Origin: an uncultured bacterium
Lineage (GTDB): Bacteria; Bdellovibrionota_C; UBA2361; SZUA-149; CALKYB01
Length of the DNA stretch: 29,667 bases
Assembly: GCA_938022485.1 (NCBI GenBank)
Contig: CALIEE010000181.1
Location: forward strand, 1 to 29,667
Direction of reading: 5' to 3'
Of this stretch, positions 3,515 to 24,977 are shown in pieces. The position numbers were made by a program, and so were the translations under genes. Under the pieces are notes generated by a model, which ran no database searches, was not told the DNA's origin, and saw only the letters and a program-made list of their open reading frames with translations. Within the stretch, counting starts at the first letter, position 1; every line of letters starts with the position of its first letter.

Positions 3515-4903
3515 CTAAATATGGATTGGCCGTCCCAGAGCTGCCCCCATTGCTTCCATGACAGCCTCTGAAAGAGTCGGGTGAGCATGAATTGTTTCTA
3601 AAACACTGCTTGCCGTTGCTTCATGGGTTTTTGCCAAAGTAGCCTCTGCAATCAGCTCAGTAGCTTCAGCGTGGATAATATGGACGCCGAGTATTTCTTC
3701 GATGTCAGTATCAACTATTACTTTGACCATTCCCTCAGTCTCGGCAATGGCAACGGCCTTTCCGCTAGCGGTAAACGGGAAGTTGCCAGTTCTGACATTA
3801 CGTCCAGCTTCTTTAGCTGCTTTCTCTGTCATACCAACTGATGCAACTTGCGGTTGGCAATAGGTGCAACCAGGAATACTGGAGTAGTCTAAAGGATGGG
3901 GAGAGTGTCCAGCAGCATGCTCTGCGGCAATGATTCCCTCATGGCTAGCCACGTGGGCTAATAGAGGAGGTCCGGTGATATCTCCAATAGCGTAAATATT
4001 ATCGATTCCTGTCCGATAGAATTCATCAACCTCGATGAAGGATTTTTCAGGTTCGATACCAACTTTCTCAAGCCCCAGGCTTTCGATATTTCCTTGTACA
4101 CCTATAGCGACCAGCACTTTATCGCCTTCCCATTCCTCTACTTTGTCACCAGTTTTAATTGTTGCTTTCACCCCAGAACCGGAAGTATCTAGCTTTTCCA
4201 CCAAGGAGCCAGTTTTGACGTTTATCCCGGCTTTTGTGAGGCTTTTACCTAAAGCCTTGGAAATGTCTTCGTCTTCGATAGGGAGTAGACCATCCATCAA
4301 TTCTACGATTGTTACGTCTGTTTCAAAGGAGTTGAAGAAATAGGCAAATTCAACACCTATGGCGCCGGCTCCAACTACTAACATTCTCTCCGGCTTATCT
4401 TTCATCTCCAGAGCTTTTCGGTAGGTGATTACTTTCTTCTCATCTACCGGTAGAGAAGGAAGGGTCCTAGCTCTAGCACCAGTAGCTATGATCGCCTTAC
4501 CGAATTGATGTATAGAACTTTTTCCAGAAGAGTCTTTAACCTCAATTTCAGTTTTAGATTTGAGAGAGGCTTCCCCCATAATTAGATCGATTTTATTTTT
4601 TTTTAGGAGGAAGGAAACTCCCTTGGTCATTTGATCTACGACGCCTCGTGAGCGGTCTATAACATCAGAAAAATTGTAACCAATTCCTTCAGCTCTTAGG
4701 CCGAAGCTTTTAGCGTGTTTGAAAGTGTTAAACACTTCTGCACTTTTAAGTAGTGCCTTCGTTGGAATACATCCCCAGTTGAGACAAACGCCTCCAGGAT
4801 TTTCTTTTTCAATGACCGCAGTTTTAAGTCCGAGTTGAGCTGCTCGAATTGCTGCTACGTAGCCTCCAGGTCCTGCTCCAATTACAATACAGTCGTAAGC
4901 CAT
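3515..4903 (-). CDS. lpdA: Dihydrolipoyl dehydrogenase (E3)
   Basis: FAD motif GAGPGGYVAA, redox disulfide GGVCLNWGCIPTK, NAD motif GAGAIGVE, C-terminal HAHPTLSE. Confidence 0.97.
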   Translation of the reverse strand: MAYDCIVIGAGPGGYVAAIRAAQLGLKTAVIEKENPGGVCLNWGCIPTKALLKSAEVFNTFKHAKSFGLRAEGIGYNFSDVIDRSRGVVDQMTKGVSFLLKKNKIDLIMGEASLKSKTEIEVKDSSGKSSIHQFGKAIIATGARARTLPSLPVDEKKVITYRKALEMKDKPERMLVVGAGAIGVEFAYFFNSFETDVTIVELMDGLLPIEDEDISKALGKSLTKAGINVKTGSLVEKLDTSGSGVKATIKTGDKVEEWEGDKVLVAIGVQGNIESLGLEKVGIEPEKSFIEVDEFYRTGIDNIYAIGDITGPPLLAHVASHEGIIAAEHAAGHSPHPLDYSSIPGCTYCQPQVASVGMTEKAAKEAGRNVRTGNFPFTASGKAVAIAETEGMVKVIVDTDIEEILGVHIIHAEATELIAEATLAKTHEATASSVLETIHAHPTLSEAVMEAMGAALGRPIHI

Positions 4904-7893: not shown

Positions 7894-8028
7894 TCCTACC
7901 ATTGATCATTGAGAGGTTTAGGAAGGGACTCTGATACAATCTGTATTGGGTCCCGTGGGTATTTGTAAAAGTAGCGATCAGGCTTTGGTTATTGATACGC
8001 ATTGAGCGGCGAAAATCCGCGAGGTGTG

Positions 8029-8300
<272 letters not shown>

Positions 8301-8495: not shown

Positions 8496-10436
8496 TTAGT
8501 CGGCTTTTAGCACAGACCAAGAAATCTTATCGTGAAGAGCTAATTTTTTCTTACCAAGAACTGGTAGCATGGACAGGCCACCAGTCAGTACGCAAGCTAA
8601 CTGACTAAGAGCTCTAAGGAATGCTCCCTGTGCGCCAACTGACTCACCTTTAAGACCACTGACCCTCAGACCGAATATTTTTTGGCCTATGGTTCTATCA
8701 TCAAAGGTAATTTTAAAAATGTTGTAAATTAGCCAGAAGCCACAAGCCACTATTCCTGCATTACCAAATAGTGTTGCTAGCTCAGAAAATTCAGCGTTCC
8801 CAGCCATTACGTCACCTAGTAAACCTGGGCGAGCGAAAATAAGTACTGTCAAACCAGATGCCACTCCAAGAGTAATAGCGCCGTCGATTAGAAATGCTCC
8901 TATTCTTTTGAATAGAGAAGCTCCGACCACTCCTTCCCATGGGCTGGATGTATCGATTTCGATTGATCGTTCATAAGCTTTTTGCTCGGCAATTTTGATT
9001 TCTTTAACTTGTTTTGAGAAAGCGTTTACCGCTTGCTTAACATCTTTGTTTACAACCTTCGCTTCGGTCGACTTATCAATTTTAGTCGCATATATTGATG
9101 CTTCCTCTGCTCCAGCTAACTCTTCTCTGACTACATGGAAAAGGAGATTTGTAGTGGCATTATTTTCAAATCCGGCTATGTCCGCCATCGAAAGTTCCAT
9201 GGCTGATTCGATATCTGCTTGATGAACAGCTGAAGCTGCAGCCAACCAAAGCGCTGGTTTTATATCGAAAGGGGAATTACCAGATGGTTTTTGAGAGATA
9301 TTTTCTTGAAGATCTGAACCAGGCTCTGAAGTATTTCCAACTTCGACTTCTAGCCCTGATAGTCCAATATCCTCGTAGTCTAAGTCTTGATTAGATGTTT
9401 TACCAGTTAGATCTATCTCGGAGTATGAACCTTCGGATAGACCTAGCTGCTCATTTTCACTGATATCTTGATCGAGGTCATCAGTAGCTAGATCTTCTTC
9501 GTCTAGATTACCTTCAGCGATCATTTCAGGGATTTGAAACTCTTCTTCGTCTAGCTCACTGGCTGTTTCTAGAGCGTCATTTTCTTCTTCATTTAGTTGC
9601 TCTTCGGAAGCTTCAAGGGTTTCAGATTGTTCTTCTTCGGACTGCTCCTCTTTAGAATCTGAGAGTTCTTCACTTTCTTCTGCACCTGCTAGAAGCTTTT
9701 CTAGTTCACTCTCTGCATCATAGTCTTCGCTAATTTCTTGAATTTCACTATGTTCTTCAGAAGCAACCTCTTCCTCTGACAAATTGCCGTCAGCAATCAT
9801 TTCCGGGATTTGAAACTCTTCTTCGTCTAGGTCACTGGCTGTTTCTAGAGCGTCAATTTTCTCTTCGATTTTTTGCTCTTCGGAAGCTTCAAGGGTTTCA
9901 GATTGTTCTTCTTCGGACTGCTCTTCTGTAGGATCTGAGAGATCTTCACTTTCCTCTTCGGCACTTGCAATTAGTTGTTCTAGTTCGTTCTCAGCATCAG
10001 CTTCAGGGGTAAATTCTTCCTCGGATTCAAAGTTCAAGGAGTCATTTGAGATCGCCTCCGACCCAAGCTGCTCAAGAATTTCATGGCTATGCTCTAGGGA
10101 ACTTAGAAGGGATTCTACCTCATTATCTGCTCCACTCAAATCATCAGAGCTGTATTCACTTGGAGATAGTTCAGACCCTTCCTTGCCCGATTCAGGCTCT
10201 TCTGAGTTTTGATCTATTTTTTCTTGAAGGGCAACTAGTGTTGAGTCTGCCTCTAAATTTTCAGATTGCTTGTCTTCTTCGCTATAGCCTAGTCGAATAA
10301 CACAATGACTTGAAGTATCTGCAATACCCTTATCAGATTCAAACCCAGAGTTGAGCATCTCAAGAATACTATCTTGAGCCGAGATTGGTTCAGAGTCCGA
10401 TGTTAAACTTGAAATTTCAGTAGGAGAATTTGACAA
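8496..10436 (-). CDS. Acidic low-complexity protein with C-terminal RDD membrane domain; probably the 3' part of a frameshifted gene together with 10535-13891
   Basis: C-terminal KRIGAFLIDG...TIGQKIFGLRV...FLRAL...LHDKIS is an RDD domain with three hydrophobic segments. The N-terminal ~450 aa are rich in E/D/S. The frame is open upstream to 10574 with no ATG or RBS-supported start. Confidence 0.8.
   Translation of the reverse strand: MSNSPTEISSLTSDSEPISAQDSILEMLNSGFESDKGIADTSSHCVIRLGYSEEDKQSENLEADSTLVALQEKIDQNSEEPESGKEGSELSPSEYSSDDLSGADNEVESLLSSLEHSHEILEQLGSEAISNDSLNFESEEEFTPEADAENELEQLIASAEEESEDLSDPTEEQSEEEQSETLEASEEQKIEEKIDALETASDLDEEEFQIPEMIADGNLSEEEVASEEHSEIQEISEDYDAESELEKLLAGAEESEELSDSKEEQSEEEQSETLEASEEQLNEEENDALETASELDEEEFQIPEMIAEGNLDEEDLATDDLDQDISENEQLGLSEGSYSEIDLTGKTSNQDLDYEDIGLSGLEVEVGNTSEPGSDLQENISQKPSGNSPFDIKPALWLAAASAVHQADIESAMELSMADIAGFENNATTNLLFHVVREELAGAEEASIYATKIDKSTEAKVVNKDVKQAVNAFSKQVKEIKIAEQKAYERSIEIDTSSPWEGVVGASLFKRIGAFLIDGAITLGVASGLTVLIFARPGLLGDVMAGNAEFSELATLFGNAGIVACGFWLIYNIFKITFDDRTIGQKIFGLRVSGLKGESVGAQGAFLRALSQLACVLTGGLSMLPVLGKKKLALHDKISWSVLKAD
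9505..9999 (-). repeat. Intragenic tandem duplication (~72-aa unit, period 276-279 nt) in the RDD ORF
   Basis: 9505-9720 vs 9781-9999; EEQSEEEQSETLEASEEQ...DALETAS(D/E)LDEEEFQIPEMIA(D/E)GNL occurs twice, with long identical DNA stretches. Confidence 0.92.
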
Positions 10437-10534
10437 TTGCTCTTCGAGGCAATCGTTTTCGAGATATTCAGTTGAATTTTTAGAATCAACTAGAAGAAAG
10501 TTAACTGCTTCTCCTTCATCAGGAGTAGATTGAG

Positions 10535-13500
10535 CTATCTGAGTATAATTTTCGGAGTTTTTTTTTCCGACAAATTATTTTCTTCCTCAGTAGAGCTATC
10601 GTCTATCTCTGGCTGTTCCTGTTGCTCTTCTAACAAGTCAGCTAATTGAGCTTCGTCGATTGCCAAGTCTAGGTTGGGTATAGCTTCCTGAACATTAATA
10701 ACTTCTTCTTCCGCTTGAGAGAAGTCCCATGTTTCAGCTTGCTCAATTTCTTGAGGAATTTCTTCTAAAGGTTGTTCTTGAATATCCCAATTTTGCGGAT
10801 GATCTTCTTCCGCTGCTTCTTGGATTAGCTCTTCAAGGCTAGTGCTTGTTAAAAGACTCCCAGGTGCTCCAGTAGTTTCATCAGATTCCCGAGTATCAGG
10901 CTCTAAAACATCAGAGGTCAGGTGCTCTAACTCAGATTCTGCTAGAAATCCTTCGTTACTGGTCTTAACTTCTGATTCCTCGGCAATAATTTCTCCAGCA
11001 AAACCATCGTGTGAAGGGCTTTGAACTTCGGCTTCCAGGAATACTTCAGAGGCCATTTCAAAAGAACTATTTTTTTCACTATCAGTTTGTTCTACTGCAT
11101 TACCATCGAAACCTTCTTGACTTTCGGATGACACTTCGGGCTGTGCTGTAATTTCTTCCTGCTTCTCTTCTTCTAGACCTTGCAAGGTATTCAAGTCGAA
11201 CAAATGATCGAAGGTCTTCATCAACTCAGGGCTGGCAGGTGCCTGAGCTTGAAGTGTTGAGCTGTTGTCAAAAATCCCTTCGTCGTGGATCTCTGAGATA
11301 GAGGCGCTATCCGTAGTGTTTAAAGCTGAATCTGTCTCGGAGCCAAAAGAAGCTTCTGCTTGTTCAAAACTATTAGTAGTTGCCTCTTCTTCACCGAGAA
11401 GGGGAGCTTGCTCTAAGATTTTATCAATATCATTCTTTAAAAATCCCGCAGACTCGCTAAGACCATCCACTGAATCTTTCAGAGGTTCAGGTATTTCACT
11501 GACAGTGTCATGCTCTGTCTCGGAAGGTTCTGGGTCTCCTATATCCAGAGGAGCGATGTCATCTAGAAGGCTGCTTAGATCCTCTTCTAATCCACTTGCA
11601 GCTTGAGTATTTACTACTTCTTCCGGAGCATGCATTGCTTGTTCCAGAGCGTTTAGAGTATCAAGTTCACTTGAGAGCTCTTCGATATTAGTAATTGGTT
11701 CTTGAGAAATATCTTCTTTCCCGATTTTGCCTGAAAGCTGCTCAAGGTCTTTCAACTCTTGATCTATGTTGACCTGTTGGCAATCTATGTCATCAACGCT
11801 AGCTACGCTTATTACATTCATACCGTCAGCAATTAGACCTTCCAGCTCTCCGTCAAGTTCTTGTTGAAGATTAGCTAGGGGATCGGGAGCTGCTGTGGCA
11901 CTCTCGTTATTCACAAGACTATCCACTAATGGATCTCCTGCGGCTTGGACAAAGGTGTTACCCATAGACATTAGCTCAGCTAATTCATCTTCAAGAGTTT
12001 GTCCAAGTGACAGAAGTGGATCGTCTTCGAGTATATCCTGAGGTGATACACCATATGCTTCAGCAAGTAGGGTTGAAAGTTGATGGATGAGTCGGTCTTT
12101 GGCTTCTAACTCAATCGCGATATCTTGATCGACTTGTTTTGCTTGAACTGTGGAAATAGTAGCTTCAATTTCCTTTTCAGAACTAGAGCTTAGTATTTCC
12201 ATGTCGAAATGAGCACCATCATCTTTTTCAGTTAGACTTTGGCGCTGCGGTGCGGAACCAATTTGCTCAAATGCTGAGACAAGACCACTCAGAAGATTTT
12301 CTCCTTTGGGTATTGATGCCTCCTCTTTTTTGGTCAGAACCGTTTGGCTTACCTCTACAGGTGCCTCTTCTTCTACTAAGTCTTCTTCATCCTCATACTC
12401 GCCTTCTACTTCAAATTCGATGCTTACTTCCATGTCATCGCCAAGTAGGAAGGAGTTACCAAGATCTGCTTGGGAGTATTGTTCAGTTTTTTCTACAGCT
12501 ACTGACTCAATGTCTAAACTCTCATCACCTAGCATTTGGTCAAGCTGATCTTCCCAATTTTCTGCACCATCTCCAAACTCCATTACTGCGGGTGCGACAA
12601 ATGGGCTGGCAGTAAGTTCTTCGCTATCTGTTTCGTTTAGCCCAAGAATAATATCATCTGATATATGTTCTTCAATCGAACTTTCCGGATTAGCAGCTTC
12701 AATTAGATTGCTTTGCCCCTCTTCTAACTGAGGATGAGGTTTTTGTTCAGTTTGTTGCGAGACAAACTCTTCTGGTCGAACTTCCGAGGAAGAAGGCTTT
12801 TGTGTGTTTGGAAGAAGTTCAGCTTGTGTACTCTCGAAAGAATCATTTAGAGCTTCAGCAGCAAGTCTTTCGAAATCCGAATCAGAAGATTCTAGAACTG
12901 GAGGGACAGTCTGTTCAGCCTGGATGTTACTTTTCTGTCTTATTGTTTCTACTATTTCGGCAGTTTTATTAGGCTCTAGACTTAGGTCAATATTAAAATC
13001 CTCGGCTAGGGCAAAATTAGATTCACCAGCTAGTTCTAATGGTTTCCAGTCTGAATTTTCTTTTTTATTTAGCTCCGCTTGTTTACTAATTTTTTCGTCC
13101 AAAGAGTCTCTAACTTTGAATGACTCAGGGGAGTCAGTTTTACTAGCAACAGTCTCTTCGTTATTTTCATTGGGTTCGGATGCTATCGTTGGCAAACTAA
13201 GGTAGCTGTCAGCAGTTAATTCAGACTCAAGCTGTTTAATTTTGTCTTCGGTGTCACCTAGTAAGTTTAGATTTTCCAAAGCATTTGGATCATTGGTCTC
13301 GTGAACTGGCTCTTGCGAGGTACTAGCTGAGTTCTCTACCTGACTAATGATCCCAGATATACTGGTCTCTTGAATTTCCTCAATCGTTGGTTCAGAGGGC
13401 TCAGGAGTTGGATTTTCACTTTGTTCTGCAGCTAGTATGAATAATTCAAAATCATCTATCTCTTTATCTAAGACTGAACCAGCGTCATCTTCTTCCGCTC

Positions 13501-13891
13501 GGTTAACAAAATTTTGAAGATCCTCGTTATTAGAGCTTAGAGTTTCGCTGATAGCGTCCATCGGGTCTGATGCTGTCCCTTCCGCTGGCGAAGATTCGAG
13601 TCCTAGTTCTGAAGAGGTCTGGGATTCGTCACTAGGGATCCTGGCTTCAGTTTGTCCTGCCTGGCTAGTTGAAGATTCATTAAGAAGTTCATTACTTGCT
13701 GATGATTTTCCTAAAATACTTTTCAAGAAACCACCTTTGTTGGAGTCTTGGTTGGAAGAGCTAGGTGATGAAACTTTTTTACCATTCTTGATCAGTGAGA
13801 GCGACTGACGACTGGACTTTAGGTTTAGTCCACATTTCGGACAGGCGACCTTTTTGTCTGAAACAACGAATTTACACTTGGGACATTTCAT
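10535..13891 (-). CDS. Giant acidic, probably disordered protein with N-terminal CxxC-x10-CxxC zinc ribbon; probably the 5' part of a zinc-ribbon-RDD gene
   Basis: MKCPKCKFVVSDKKVACPKCGLNL followed by ~1,090 aa rich in E/S/D with no recognisable folded domain; ends shortly after an A9 run. Confidence 0.8.
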   Translation of the reverse strand: MKCPKCKFVVSDKKVACPKCGLNLKSSRQSLSLIKNGKKVSSPSSSNQDSNKGGFLKSILGKSSASNELLNESSTSQAGQTEARIPSDESQTSSELGLESSPAEGTASDPMDAISETLSSNNEDLQNFVNRAEEDDAGSVLDKEIDDFELFILAAEQSENPTPEPSEPTIEEIQETSISGIISQVENSASTSQEPVHETNDPNALENLNLLGDTEDKIKQLESELTADSYLSLPTIASEPNENNEETVASKTDSPESFKVRDSLDEKISKQAELNKKENSDWKPLELAGESNFALAEDFNIDLSLEPNKTAEIVETIRQKSNIQAEQTVPPVLESSDSDFERLAAEALNDSFESTQAELLPNTQKPSSSEVRPEEFVSQQTEQKPHPQLEEGQSNLIEAANPESSIEEHISDDIILGLNETDSEELTASPFVAPAVMEFGDGAENWEDQLDQMLGDESLDIESVAVEKTEQYSQADLGNSFLLGDDMEVSIEFEVEGEYEDEEDLVEEEAPVEVSQTVLTKKEEASIPKGENLLSGLVSAFEQIGSAPQRQSLTEKDDGAHFDMEILSSSSEKEIEATISTVQAKQVDQDIAIELEAKDRLIHQLSTLLAEAYGVSPQDILEDDPLLSLGQTLEDELAELMSMGNTFVQAAGDPLVDSLVNNESATAAPDPLANLQQELDGELEGLIADGMNVISVASVDDIDCQQVNIDQELKDLEQLSGKIGKEDISQEPITNIEELSSELDTLNALEQAMHAPEEVVNTQAASGLEEDLSSLLDDIAPLDIGDPEPSETEHDTVSEIPEPLKDSVDGLSESAGFLKNDIDKILEQAPLLGEEEATTNSFEQAEASFGSETDSALNTTDSASISEIHDEGIFDNSSTLQAQAPASPELMKTFDHLFDLNTLQGLEEEKQEEITAQPEVSSESQEGFDGNAVEQTDSEKNSSFEMASEVFLEAEVQSPSHDGFAGEIIAEESEVKTSNEGFLAESELEHLTSDVLEPDTRESDETTGAPGSLLTSTSLEELIQEAAEEDHPQNWDIQEQPLEEIPQEIEQAETWDFSQAEEEVINVQEAIPNLDLAIDEAQLADLLEEQQEQPEIDDSSTEEENNLSEKKTPKIILR

Positions 13892-24396: not shown

Positions 24397-24426
24397 AAAA
24401 AAAAAGAGCCGAACAGGCTCTTTTTT
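24397..24426. terminator. Bidirectional Rho-independent terminator between the orphan ORF and rpsP
   Basis: A9-GAGCC-GAACA-GGCTC-T6; U-tract on both strands, between convergent genes. Confidence 0.85.
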
Positions 24427-24446
24427 GGTCGCAGGTTTTTTTTAAC

Positions 24447-24941
24447 CTATTCCGACTTTTCCTCGGCAGCAGCCTCTTCTTTAGGAGCTTCTTCAGTTGC
24501 AGCTTCTTTGGTCTCCTCAACTGGTGCTTCTTCCTCTTCGGCAGCTTTAACTGCTGGTTCAGGCTTTTCGCGGTCCTTTCTAGATTTTCTGCGAGCTTTA
24601 GCTTCGCTTTTATCTCTAGCCTTGCCTTTTCCTGCAGCTTTTCTTTTAGCTCGCTTGGAACGAATTTTATCTTTCTGTTCTTTTTCAAGTTCTTCAAGAA
24701 AGCCAGGGCAAACGCCATCGATGTAAGCAGCAACGGTGTCGGACGGCTGTGCGCCAACTCCAACCCAGTACTTAACTCTATCTTCTTTGAGATTTACTGC
24801 AGCCGGCTCTTTCAAGGGGTCTACAGTTCCAAGCATTTCAATAAAGCGACCATCTCGCTTCTTCTCTTTGTCGCAAACCACCACCCTGTAAAAAGGTTTC
24901 TTGTTTCTTCCGTGCCTAGCTAATCTAATTGCAGTTGCCAA
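24447..24941 (-). CDS. rpsP: 30S ribosomal protein S16 with long charged C-terminal extension
   Basis: IRLARHGRNKKPFYRVVV...RDGRFIEMLGTVDP...RVKYWVGVGAQPSDTV; directly downstream of ffh; TTG start. Confidence 0.96.
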   Translation of the reverse strand: MATAIRLARHGRNKKPFYRVVVCDKEKKRDGRFIEMLGTVDPLKEPAAVNLKEDRVKYWVGVGAQPSDTVAAYIDGVCPGFLEELEKEQKDKIRSKRAKRKAAGKGKARDKSEAKARRKSRKDREKPEPAVKAAEEEEAPVEETKEAATEEAPKEEAAAEEKSE

Positions 24942-24977
24942 TTTTCTATCTCTCTATTTAAACAATCACTACTAAAA

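Follow-up and report, generated by a model that had tools for sequence, protein, structure and literature searches.

A conserved nine-adenine run as a probable recoding site in a giant zinc-ribbon/RDD gene of uncultured marine Bdellovibrionota

The window, a 29,667 nucleotide stretch of DNA from an uncultured bacterium (GenBank assembly GCA_938022485.1, contig CALIEE010000181.1), carries on its minus strand a giant gene in two reading frames that meet at a run of nine adenines, and this is most likely, on comparison with other genomes, a new example of a known phenomenon, slip-site recoding, in uncultured marine Bdellovibrio-like bacteria. The ancestral single gene would have encoded a zinc ribbon, a very long acidic disordered region, a helical module and an RDD membrane domain in linear arrangement, and in one marine Bdellovibrionota lineage it probably carries a fixed, conserved recoding site, read by polymerase slippage on the A9 run and/or by a -1 ribosomal shift on the heptamer A_AAA_AAA. 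Default decoding of A9 would yield a soluble acidic protein of 1118 aa ending (T/S)PKIILR, and a one-base slip would lead into the -1 frame and yield a form of 1798 aa anchored in the membrane by its RDD domain. Such a slip could arise either when RNA polymerase adds an A, giving an A10 mRNA, or when the ribosome shifts by -1 on A_AAA_AAA.

The open reading frame of the short form (ORF1, zero frame, 1118 aa, 13891..10535) begins with a zinc ribbon (MKCPKC...CPKC, 13820..13891), continues as an acidic, disordered region of ~1050 aa (25% D+E) and finishes in a basic/hydrophobic KKTPKIILR followed by TAG. On the minus strand it crosses the nine A's (10558..10566) as TCG GAA AAA AAA ACT, a frame 0 phasing of G GAA AAA AAA A that contains A_AAA_AAA, such that the proposed slip site presents both a run of at least nine A/T, as suits polymerase, and an in-phase X_XXY_YYZ heptamer, as suits the ribosome. 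The zero-frame tail T P K I I L R and its stop (10535..10558) overlap the first nine codons of the -1 frame, the TAG itself (10537-10535) lying seven codons past the run. The -1 frame opens at 10574, four codons ahead of A9 and directly behind a TAA (10575..10577), a layout also present in G002 and BBAY59 that confines productive shifting to ~40 nt, and it stays open for 692 codons without a stop to 8496 (8496..10574). Joining the two frames would give 1111+687 = 1798 aa, the C-terminal 687 aa being supplied by the -1 frame. The read-through of A9 to a stop seven codons later, the stop-free -1 frame reaching into the RDD ORF and the 1,798 aa fusion had all been put forward in the original prediction and are borne out by the sequence. 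That A9 sits in a short frame overlap is equally true, but this alone does not discriminate between explanations, as any single-nucleotide homopolymer indel would leave two frames overlapping in this way; the distinction comes from comparing genomes.

Beyond the run, the first TTG of the downstream frame is at 10436, 41 codons past A9, and a conserved in-frame ATG (10356..10358, motif ILEML) follows 67 codons past A9. The claim that no credible ATG or ribosome binding site exists here stands in part: the ATG indeed has no Shine-Dalgarno sequence upstream, but it is conserved in all relatives, and the missing binding site is a weak argument as many genes in this genome likewise have none. From the ORF1 stop to this ATG, 58 codons (10359..10534) behave as coding in the -1 frame. 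Further downstream the acidic region contains a tandem duplication of ~92 aa (9478..10018, two copies 276-279 nt apart), over which the word depth in the source run is doubled and in whose G002 counterpart the scaffold gap of that genome falls. The frame ends in a conserved C-terminal module (8499..9254), a helical pre-RDD segment and then the RDD membrane domain (~8520-8921).

The RDD domain (PF06271) is recognised over residues 552-685 of the -1 frame, scoring 52.9 bits (E 6e-14; cut-off 24.1), the AlphaFold model reaches a pLDDT of ~90 over this part, and hydrophobic segments are present only in the C-terminal module. The zinc ribbon matches PF13248 (Zn_ribbon_3) with 17.2 bits, under the Pfam cut-off of 27, and both CPxC pairs of its CPxC-x10-CPxC motif are nearly invariant in ten orthologues, split and single-ORF alike. 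A fold search of the C-terminal module against the PDB gave no match below E 0.3, the protein atlas returned for it only 'RDD family, Bdellovibrionota', and an NCBIfam scan found no family match. A polar hub of the FimV/HubP type was considered and rejected. The only likeness is an acidic, scaffold-like composition, whereas such hubs are defined by periplasmic LysM, a single TM helix and the FimV C-terminal motif; the Pfam and NCBIfam scans show only zinc ribbon and RDD, and the acidic region is positioned before, not after, the membrane domain.

Orthologues place the two frames in one gene. Split orthologues encode ORF1 counterparts of 1128 aa (G002) and 1193 aa (BBAY59) with the same ending, and in the distant orthologues the gene is one ORF, 1312-1789 aa long, with this CPxC...CPxC ribbon at its N-terminus and the RDD module at its C-terminus. 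Two examples are P0006 (1616 aa), which is syntenic, with PatA_N, DsbA and RsmE upstream and holA downstream, and P0007 (1788 aa), both from other Bdellovibrionota; both have the ribbon and the helical-plus-RDD ends seen here but, unlike the gene in the window, are uninterrupted. The proposal that zinc ribbon, disordered region and RDD constitute one gene is therefore sustained by single-ORF orthologues with the same ends, one of them in synteny, and single-gene ancestry is shown by this comparison. The alignment of the C-terminal module took in 13 orthologues, in which the nearest single-ORF protein has 35% identity. The disordered middle of the single-ORF orthologues cannot be aligned across the junction and provides no counterpart of the junction itself, and a search for an uninterrupted gene in a close relative found none. 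A divergent orthologue in the same genus (G001) leaves its contig before the junction. A further split orthologue (L029, 1429+204 aa) was set aside, as its break falls inside the conserved C-terminal module on a long-read contig of 2x coverage and is probably an error.

The junction TTGTCGG-A9-[C/G]TCCGAAAAT is shared by seven assemblies with exactly A9 in every one: the window, three from G002 (an NCBI metaSPAdes MAG, an ENA MEGAHIT contig and a Logan contig), an ENA NAPP22 contig and two JGI BBAY59 assemblies, whose contigs came from a protein search. Together they represent three well separated lineages and one close to G002, from at least four data sets. Not only the run but also the frame change and the tail (T/S)PKIILR-stop are common to all seven, from different samples and assemblers, and the site with its two-frame layout is thus conserved across diverged species. 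The comparison of relatives for split against fused states called for by the original prediction accordingly returned the A9 split in these seven assemblies and fusion in the distant orthologues. A scan of JGI metagenomes with a junction pattern permitting A8-A10 gave no matches, nor did one with the C-terminal module, and a single-protein scan of species-representative genomes returned only G002. In a codon alignment of the three lineages, the ten-codon window over A9 is the most conserved of the 1034 in ORF1, with 28/30 nucleotides and 10/10 third positions identical against an average of 27%. The gene prefers AAA (76%) and GAA (71%) codons, so that conservation of nine A's is, taken alone, only modestly surprising.

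Both frames bear the mark of selection. ORF1 has a dN/dS of 0.21 against G002, and the last 250 codons of the -1 frame have 0.02-0.09 at a dS of ~0.8 in the same comparison, from which it is clear that purifying selection acts strongly on the downstream frame and that the gene is not dead. The zero-frame tail has in the three lineages changed synonymously (ATA/ATC/ATT, CTC/CTT, AGA/CGA, TAG/TAA), with one conservative T/S replacement, a pattern resting on about seven substitutions, each of which alters the residue in the overlapping -1 frame. The -1 frame of the stretch 10359-10534 and its counterparts has zero stops in G000, G002 and BBAY59, against 2 and 7-11 in the other frames, and shuffling gives a stop-free stretch with a probability of 0.01-0.03 per lineage. 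Alignment gaps here are all multiples of three, dN/dS is 0.36-0.44 in the -1 frame and 0.6-1.1 in the others, and the interval from stop to ATG is 58-63 codons across the three lineages. An open stretch that evolves in frame ahead of the first ATG supports the view that translation of the downstream frame depends on the upstream one, though the conserved ATG could offer it a start of its own. The suggestion of a short soluble and a long membrane form gains support from the synonymous zero-frame tail and the constrained downstream frame, and the short form may well have a function of its own.

That the run slips, with what efficiency and by which machine we infer from features of the site. Bacterial RNA polymerase slips efficiently at nine A/T, as used by Thermus dnaX (PMC5009743), and a nine-A cassette in an E. 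coli reporter gave 40% frameshifting (PMC3711429). Neither a downstream hairpin or pseudoknot nor an upstream Shine-Dalgarno-like element, the stimulators of -1 ribosomal shifting, was detected: the downstream sequence folds no better than its shuffles (z -0.3 to +0.9), and alifold stems there show no covariation. This argues against a classical -1 frameshifting cassette, not against polymerase slippage, and given the length of the run, nine, and the missing downstream structure we favour RNA polymerase slippage as the main route. A 5-bp UCGGA/UCCGA stem that would place the A-run in its loop has been conserved, likewise without covariation, a conservation that dual coding would explain equally well. 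In a census of tRNA-Lys only the UUU anticodon was seen, which in a 70%-complete genome is uninformative.

Four other accounts of the split have to be weighed. Were the true sequence A10, and the gene an ordinary single ORF, the break would be a homopolymer sequencing or assembly error, and the source run indeed covers A9 only ~7-fold, seen as assembled contigs, though a second assembler recovers A9 from that run. But metaSPAdes, MEGAHIT, Logan and JGI assemblies, made from different samples and species, agree, and with exactly A9 in all seven an assembly error is effectively excluded as cause of the split. The genome contains five A/T runs of 10, and among the 34 runs of at least nine in the assembly ten are in frame within long ORFs and only 10558-10566 breaks a frame; the T9/A9 of lpdA (4596-4604) is in frame, as had been predicted. 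Moreover the tail substitutions respect frame 0, a pattern that would make no sense had that frame ended at the run. The error reading is in consequence close to refuted, and we accord it barely any probability. An A8 in another contig (C33) that resembled a second frameshift site in this genome was rejected, being two overlapping genes. Scarcely less improbable is phase variation, in which the run would change length at the DNA level within populations, A9 being off and A10 on, as the original prediction had entertained. Homopolymers this long are prone to replication slippage (PMC3711429), but a contingency locus is expected to differ in repeat length between strains, and A9 is found in 7/7 assemblies of different samples and lineages, with no A8 or A10 allele; the suggestion is left unsupported by this uniform run length.

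A quite unlikely, though more serious, contender is gene fission, in which an ancestral A10 lost one base and the halves became separate, the RDD half now starting at the ATG 10358 or re-initiating after the ORF1 stop. The ILEML ATG, conserved in all lineages, is where gene callers start the frame in the relatives, and no other codon is a candidate for independent initiation; 67 codons past A9, it would be an alternative start for a frame with a dN/dS of 0.02-0.09. Its missing Shine-Dalgarno sequence does not exclude such a start in a genome where many genes have none, and in the intervening stretch G000 and BBAY59 resemble each other at the protein level only marginally (p 0.03 and 0.18). Fission does not, however, readily account for 58-63 codons before the ATG whose -1 frame is stop-free across three lineages at saturated synonymous sites, a joint chance of ~5e-4 for the two most distant, nor for gaps that are all in frame and a dN/dS lowest in that frame. 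In addition, nowhere in the gene is the nucleotide sequence better conserved than at A9 with its flanks, unlike at a mere scar, and no promoter-like site above chance precedes the ATG. The remaining account shares its mechanism with our own and parts from it solely over the importance of the short form: a fixed A10-to-A9 deletion, which the gene survives only through polymerase infidelity that restores the frame in some transcripts, with the short form a functionless by-product. The review PMC5009743 gives the insect endosymbionts Buchnera and Blochmannia as such cases. Against this non-adaptive rescue, the tail and the position of its stop have been kept through synonymous changes alone (but for T/S) in three lineages, and A9 has persisted from dS >0.6 to saturation without reverting to A10, though a one-base homopolymer insertion is easy. 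We regard it as unlikely, and what probability it has is contained within that given to the recoding site as a whole.

The proposed recoding site has several known counterparts. E. coli dnaX, copA and carboxysomal csoS2, in which -1 ribosomal frameshifting makes two isoforms from each gene, resemble it in this dual output and in a correctly phased A_AAA_AAN heptamer. Their sites are A_AAA_AAG or similar with a downstream hairpin or pseudoknot, and in dnaX also an upstream Shine-Dalgarno-like element, and shifting yields the shorter form, whereas here it would yield the longer one and no stimulatory structure was detected. Closer is dnaX of Thermus thermophilus (tau/gamma, slippage on a 9-nt A/T run), likewise a chromosomal, non-mobile gene with a conserved nine-A coding run, and here too heterogeneous mRNAs would give two proteins of common N-terminus and differing C-terminus; in the two-ORF dnaX of Chlorobi (A10 runs), as would be the case here, only a slip leads to the longer product, a stop coming up in the zero frame just past the run (PMC5009743, PMC3711429). 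The present case is distinct from both in its unrelated family and in a predicted 687-aa extension that would add a membrane anchor. In Shigella flexneri mxiE and spa13 homopolymer slippage also joins overlapping frames and places a long C-terminal extension on a fraction of the product (PMC5009743). Those are, however, secretion-system genes of a virulence plasmid, whereas this gene is chromosomal, in a housekeeping neighbourhood of a free-living or predatory marine bacterium.

To our knowledge, few non-mobile genes on bacterial chromosomes carry a conserved recoding site, the usual examples being dnaX, prfB, copA, csoS2 and the Shigella secretion genes, and every new case shows how annotation pipelines wrongly take such genes for two ORFs or for pseudogenes. 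The locus provides a clean comparative signature of dual use, a synonymous zero-frame tail over drifting -1 codons. Its weight is limited in that the organisms are uncultured and the function of the protein is unknown, as is still the role of the RDD domain (PMC12419801). A more speculative extension, which we think decidedly doubtful, is that the slip is a tuned switch, with polymerase slippage setting the ratio of free (PKIILR-tailed) to membrane-tethered protein, a ratio that might follow the growth state of the cell, differing for instance between attack and growth phases if it lives as a predator. Soluble and RDD-anchored versions of a giant acidic scaffold would in that case come from a single gene. 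If the slip itself occurs, it would decide whether a ~120-kDa acidic zinc-ribbon protein stays in the cytoplasm or is tethered to the membrane through RDD.

The window comes from a marine metagenome-assembled genome, G000 (70% complete, 2.1 Mb, 332 contigs, ~43% G+C), and re-reading of its sequence bore out every coordinate in the original prediction for this minus-strand locus. ORF1 (13891..10535, 1118 aa) opens with an N-terminal CPxC...CPxC zinc ribbon followed by ~1050 acidic serine-rich residues, crosses the A9 run (10558-10566) in the phase TCG GAA AAA AAA ACT and ends seven codons past it (...KKTPKIILR-TAG). The -1 frame, closed ahead of the run by TAA at 10577-10575, is open for 692 codons from 10574 through the run to 8496, terminating in an RDD membrane domain (PF06271, E 6e-14), and a slip at the run gives a product of 1111+687 = 1798 aa. 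The acidic region is 24% D+E, and hydrophobic segments are confined to the RDD part; neither a solved structure nor an established role was found for the RDD domain, and no NCBIfam model matches. A FimV/HubP-like hub is not supported: it lacks the LysM and FimV motifs that define that family, and the likeness is one of composition only. Downstream of the run the acidic region holds a ~92-aa tandem duplication (9478-10018), its two copies spaced 276-279 nt apart and sharing 72-86% identity. Word depth in the source run doubles here, and the 100-N gap in the scaffold of G002, another species in the genus, falls in the same repeat, so relatives may vary in copy number or assemblies may have collapsed the repeat. 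A tRNA-Phe gene (8028-8101) lies directly downstream of the RDD gene.

Comparison with relatives indicates that ORF1 and the RDD frame were once a single gene, supporting the proposed zinc-ribbon/disordered/RDD architecture. In four genomes that belong to the order but to other families, single ORFs of 1312-1789 aa have the same zinc-ribbon start and RDD-module end, and searching exhaustively, without a profile, for matches to the 300 C-terminal residues recovers about twenty further proteins (1100-1800 aa) with the module at their extreme end, the closest among these matches being P0006 (1616 aa), whose neighbourhood resembles that of the window. N- and C-terminal alignments confirm the common ends of split and single-ORF genes; the disordered middle cannot be aligned between them, so no counterpart of the junction is found in the single ORFs. 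Against G002, ORF1 has dS 0.61 and dN/dS 0.21, and the -1 frame has dS ~0.8 and dN/dS 0.02-0.09 over its final 250 codons. These low ratios indicate that both halves have been selectively retained since the A9-sharing lineages split, and that the gene carrying the run is not dead. One more distant orthologue, considered as a second recoding site (L029 7740-7790, ENA ERZ25072999 ctg239455_2x_l), is broken within the conserved pre-RDD module into parts of 1429 and 204 aa, probably by sequencing error, its contig name suggesting 2x long-read coverage.

An artefactual frame break caused by homopolymer error is close to excluded. The Logan assembly of the source run again has A9, in a 4.3-kb contig with zero differences (the same data, at only ~7-fold depth), and stronger evidence comes from other genomes. 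The G002 MAG shares the junction: nine A's precisely, the TAA ahead of them and the short tail, its ORF1 protein being unchanged in the metaSPAdes MAG, a MEGAHIT contig and a Logan contig. The junction is also present in the closely related ENA contig NAPP22 (dS from G002 ~0.05) and in two JGI assemblies of the Botany Bay sample BBAY59, where identity falls to 42% in ORF1 and 57% in the C-terminal module and the gene neighbours still match (PatA_N, DsbA and RsmE upstream; holA, S49 peptidase and lpdA downstream). A general homopolymer problem in G000 is countered by its 34 A/T runs of at least nine, ten of which stay in frame within long ORFs, including that in lpdA, as claimed; only the one at 10558-10566 separates two long frames. 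Phase variation in run length is likewise unsupported, every assembly having exactly A9. The one other frameshift-like hit in G000, an A8 (contig C33, 11527-11534), proved on inspection to be an ordinary gene overlap: the run falls close to the end of a glycosyltransferase-like gene, and the stop codon of that gene lies across the start region of a 759-codon membrane-protein frame. The window's third A9 does not concern a coding frame, being one arm of an intergenic hairpin (24397-24440; A-run, GAGCC, loop, GGCTC, T-run) between convergent genes beside rpsP, with the look of a bidirectional terminator. The adjacent ribosomal protein S16 gene (24447-24953) apparently has a long lysine/glutamate/alanine-rich C-terminal extension, which brings the whole protein to ~168 aa.

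Several features suggest that the A9 site is used. In a codon alignment of ORF1 from three lineages (1043 gap-free columns), just 27% of third positions agree throughout. Of its 1034 ten-codon windows, the one with A9 at its centre ranks first (28/30 bases and 10/10 third positions identical), and the runners-up in third-position identity (9/10) overlap it; this is supportive, not decisive, because AAA and GAA are preferred codons in the gene. Over the 58-63 codons that lead from the ORF1 stop to the first conserved ATG, the -1 frame has zero stops in G000, G002 and BBAY59, compared with 2 and 7-11 in the other frames, a chance of 0.01-0.03 per lineage in shuffles, G000 and BBAY59 being nearly independent here. 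All nucleotide-alignment gaps in this stretch are multiples of three, and its dN/dS is lower in the -1 frame (0.36-0.44) than in the others (0.6-1.1). Ribosomes therefore seem to read the stretch, which they could enter only at the A9 run. In the eight codons past the run the lineages differ by ~seven substitutions (ATA/ATC/ATT, CTC/CTT, AGA/CGA, TAG/TAA and ACT/AGT, T/S). Read in frame 0 these are synonymous or, for T/S, conservative, and each of them alters a -1-frame residue. Such a pattern, based here on those ~seven changes, is what one would expect if the short form, with its basic and hydrophobic tail, is important.

These observations bear on two further explanations. Gene fission, with the RDD half initiated independently at the ILEML methionine, is improbable given the conserved A9 run and the open, in-frame evolution of the sequence upstream of that codon. 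The original prediction saw no credible ATG or ribosome-binding site here; this ATG (10358-10356, 67 codons past the run) does exist and is kept in relatives, and while a Shine-Dalgarno motif is indeed absent, that says little, as many other G000 genes have none. In a variant of the recoding reading itself, slippage would be a non-adaptive rescue that merely compensates a fixed deletion, the short form being a by-product; this shares the recoding mechanism and is somewhat unlikely, given the conserved zero-frame tail and long persistence without reversion.

Bacterial RNA polymerase slips efficiently on nine A's, as exploited by Thermus thermophilus dnaX, and a 9-A cassette in an E. coli reporter gave 40% frameshifting (PMC5009743, PMC3711429). 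The run here, like that of dnaX, is nine long, sufficient for such slippage. A ten-A mRNA would be read as ...SEKK-NSENY... and on to the RDD domain; an eight-A mRNA would enter the third frame and, reading from the sequence, stop after 16 codons. A -1 ribosomal shift could act instead, as A_AAA_AAA lies within the run in the required phase. However, no stimulatory structure downstream of the run was better than shuffled controls, and there was no covariation, so polymerase slippage is ranked higher. UCGGA and UCCGA on either side of the run (10552-10570) could pair into a 5-bp stem that leaves the run in the loop, and this pairing is conserved in all lineages with covariation absent; dual coding may explain the conservation equally well, and the geometry matches no known slippage stimulator.

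The comparisons thus indicate a real, conserved frame change at A9 in a marine Bdellovibrionota gene of zinc-ribbon/disordered/RDD layout, probably a new instance of the already known mechanism of recoding at an A9 run. The conserved run, coding-like stretch and constrained tail make the reading first proposed the most likely one, that the run is probably a recoding site from which the gene would yield a short soluble protein as well as a long one anchored in the membrane.
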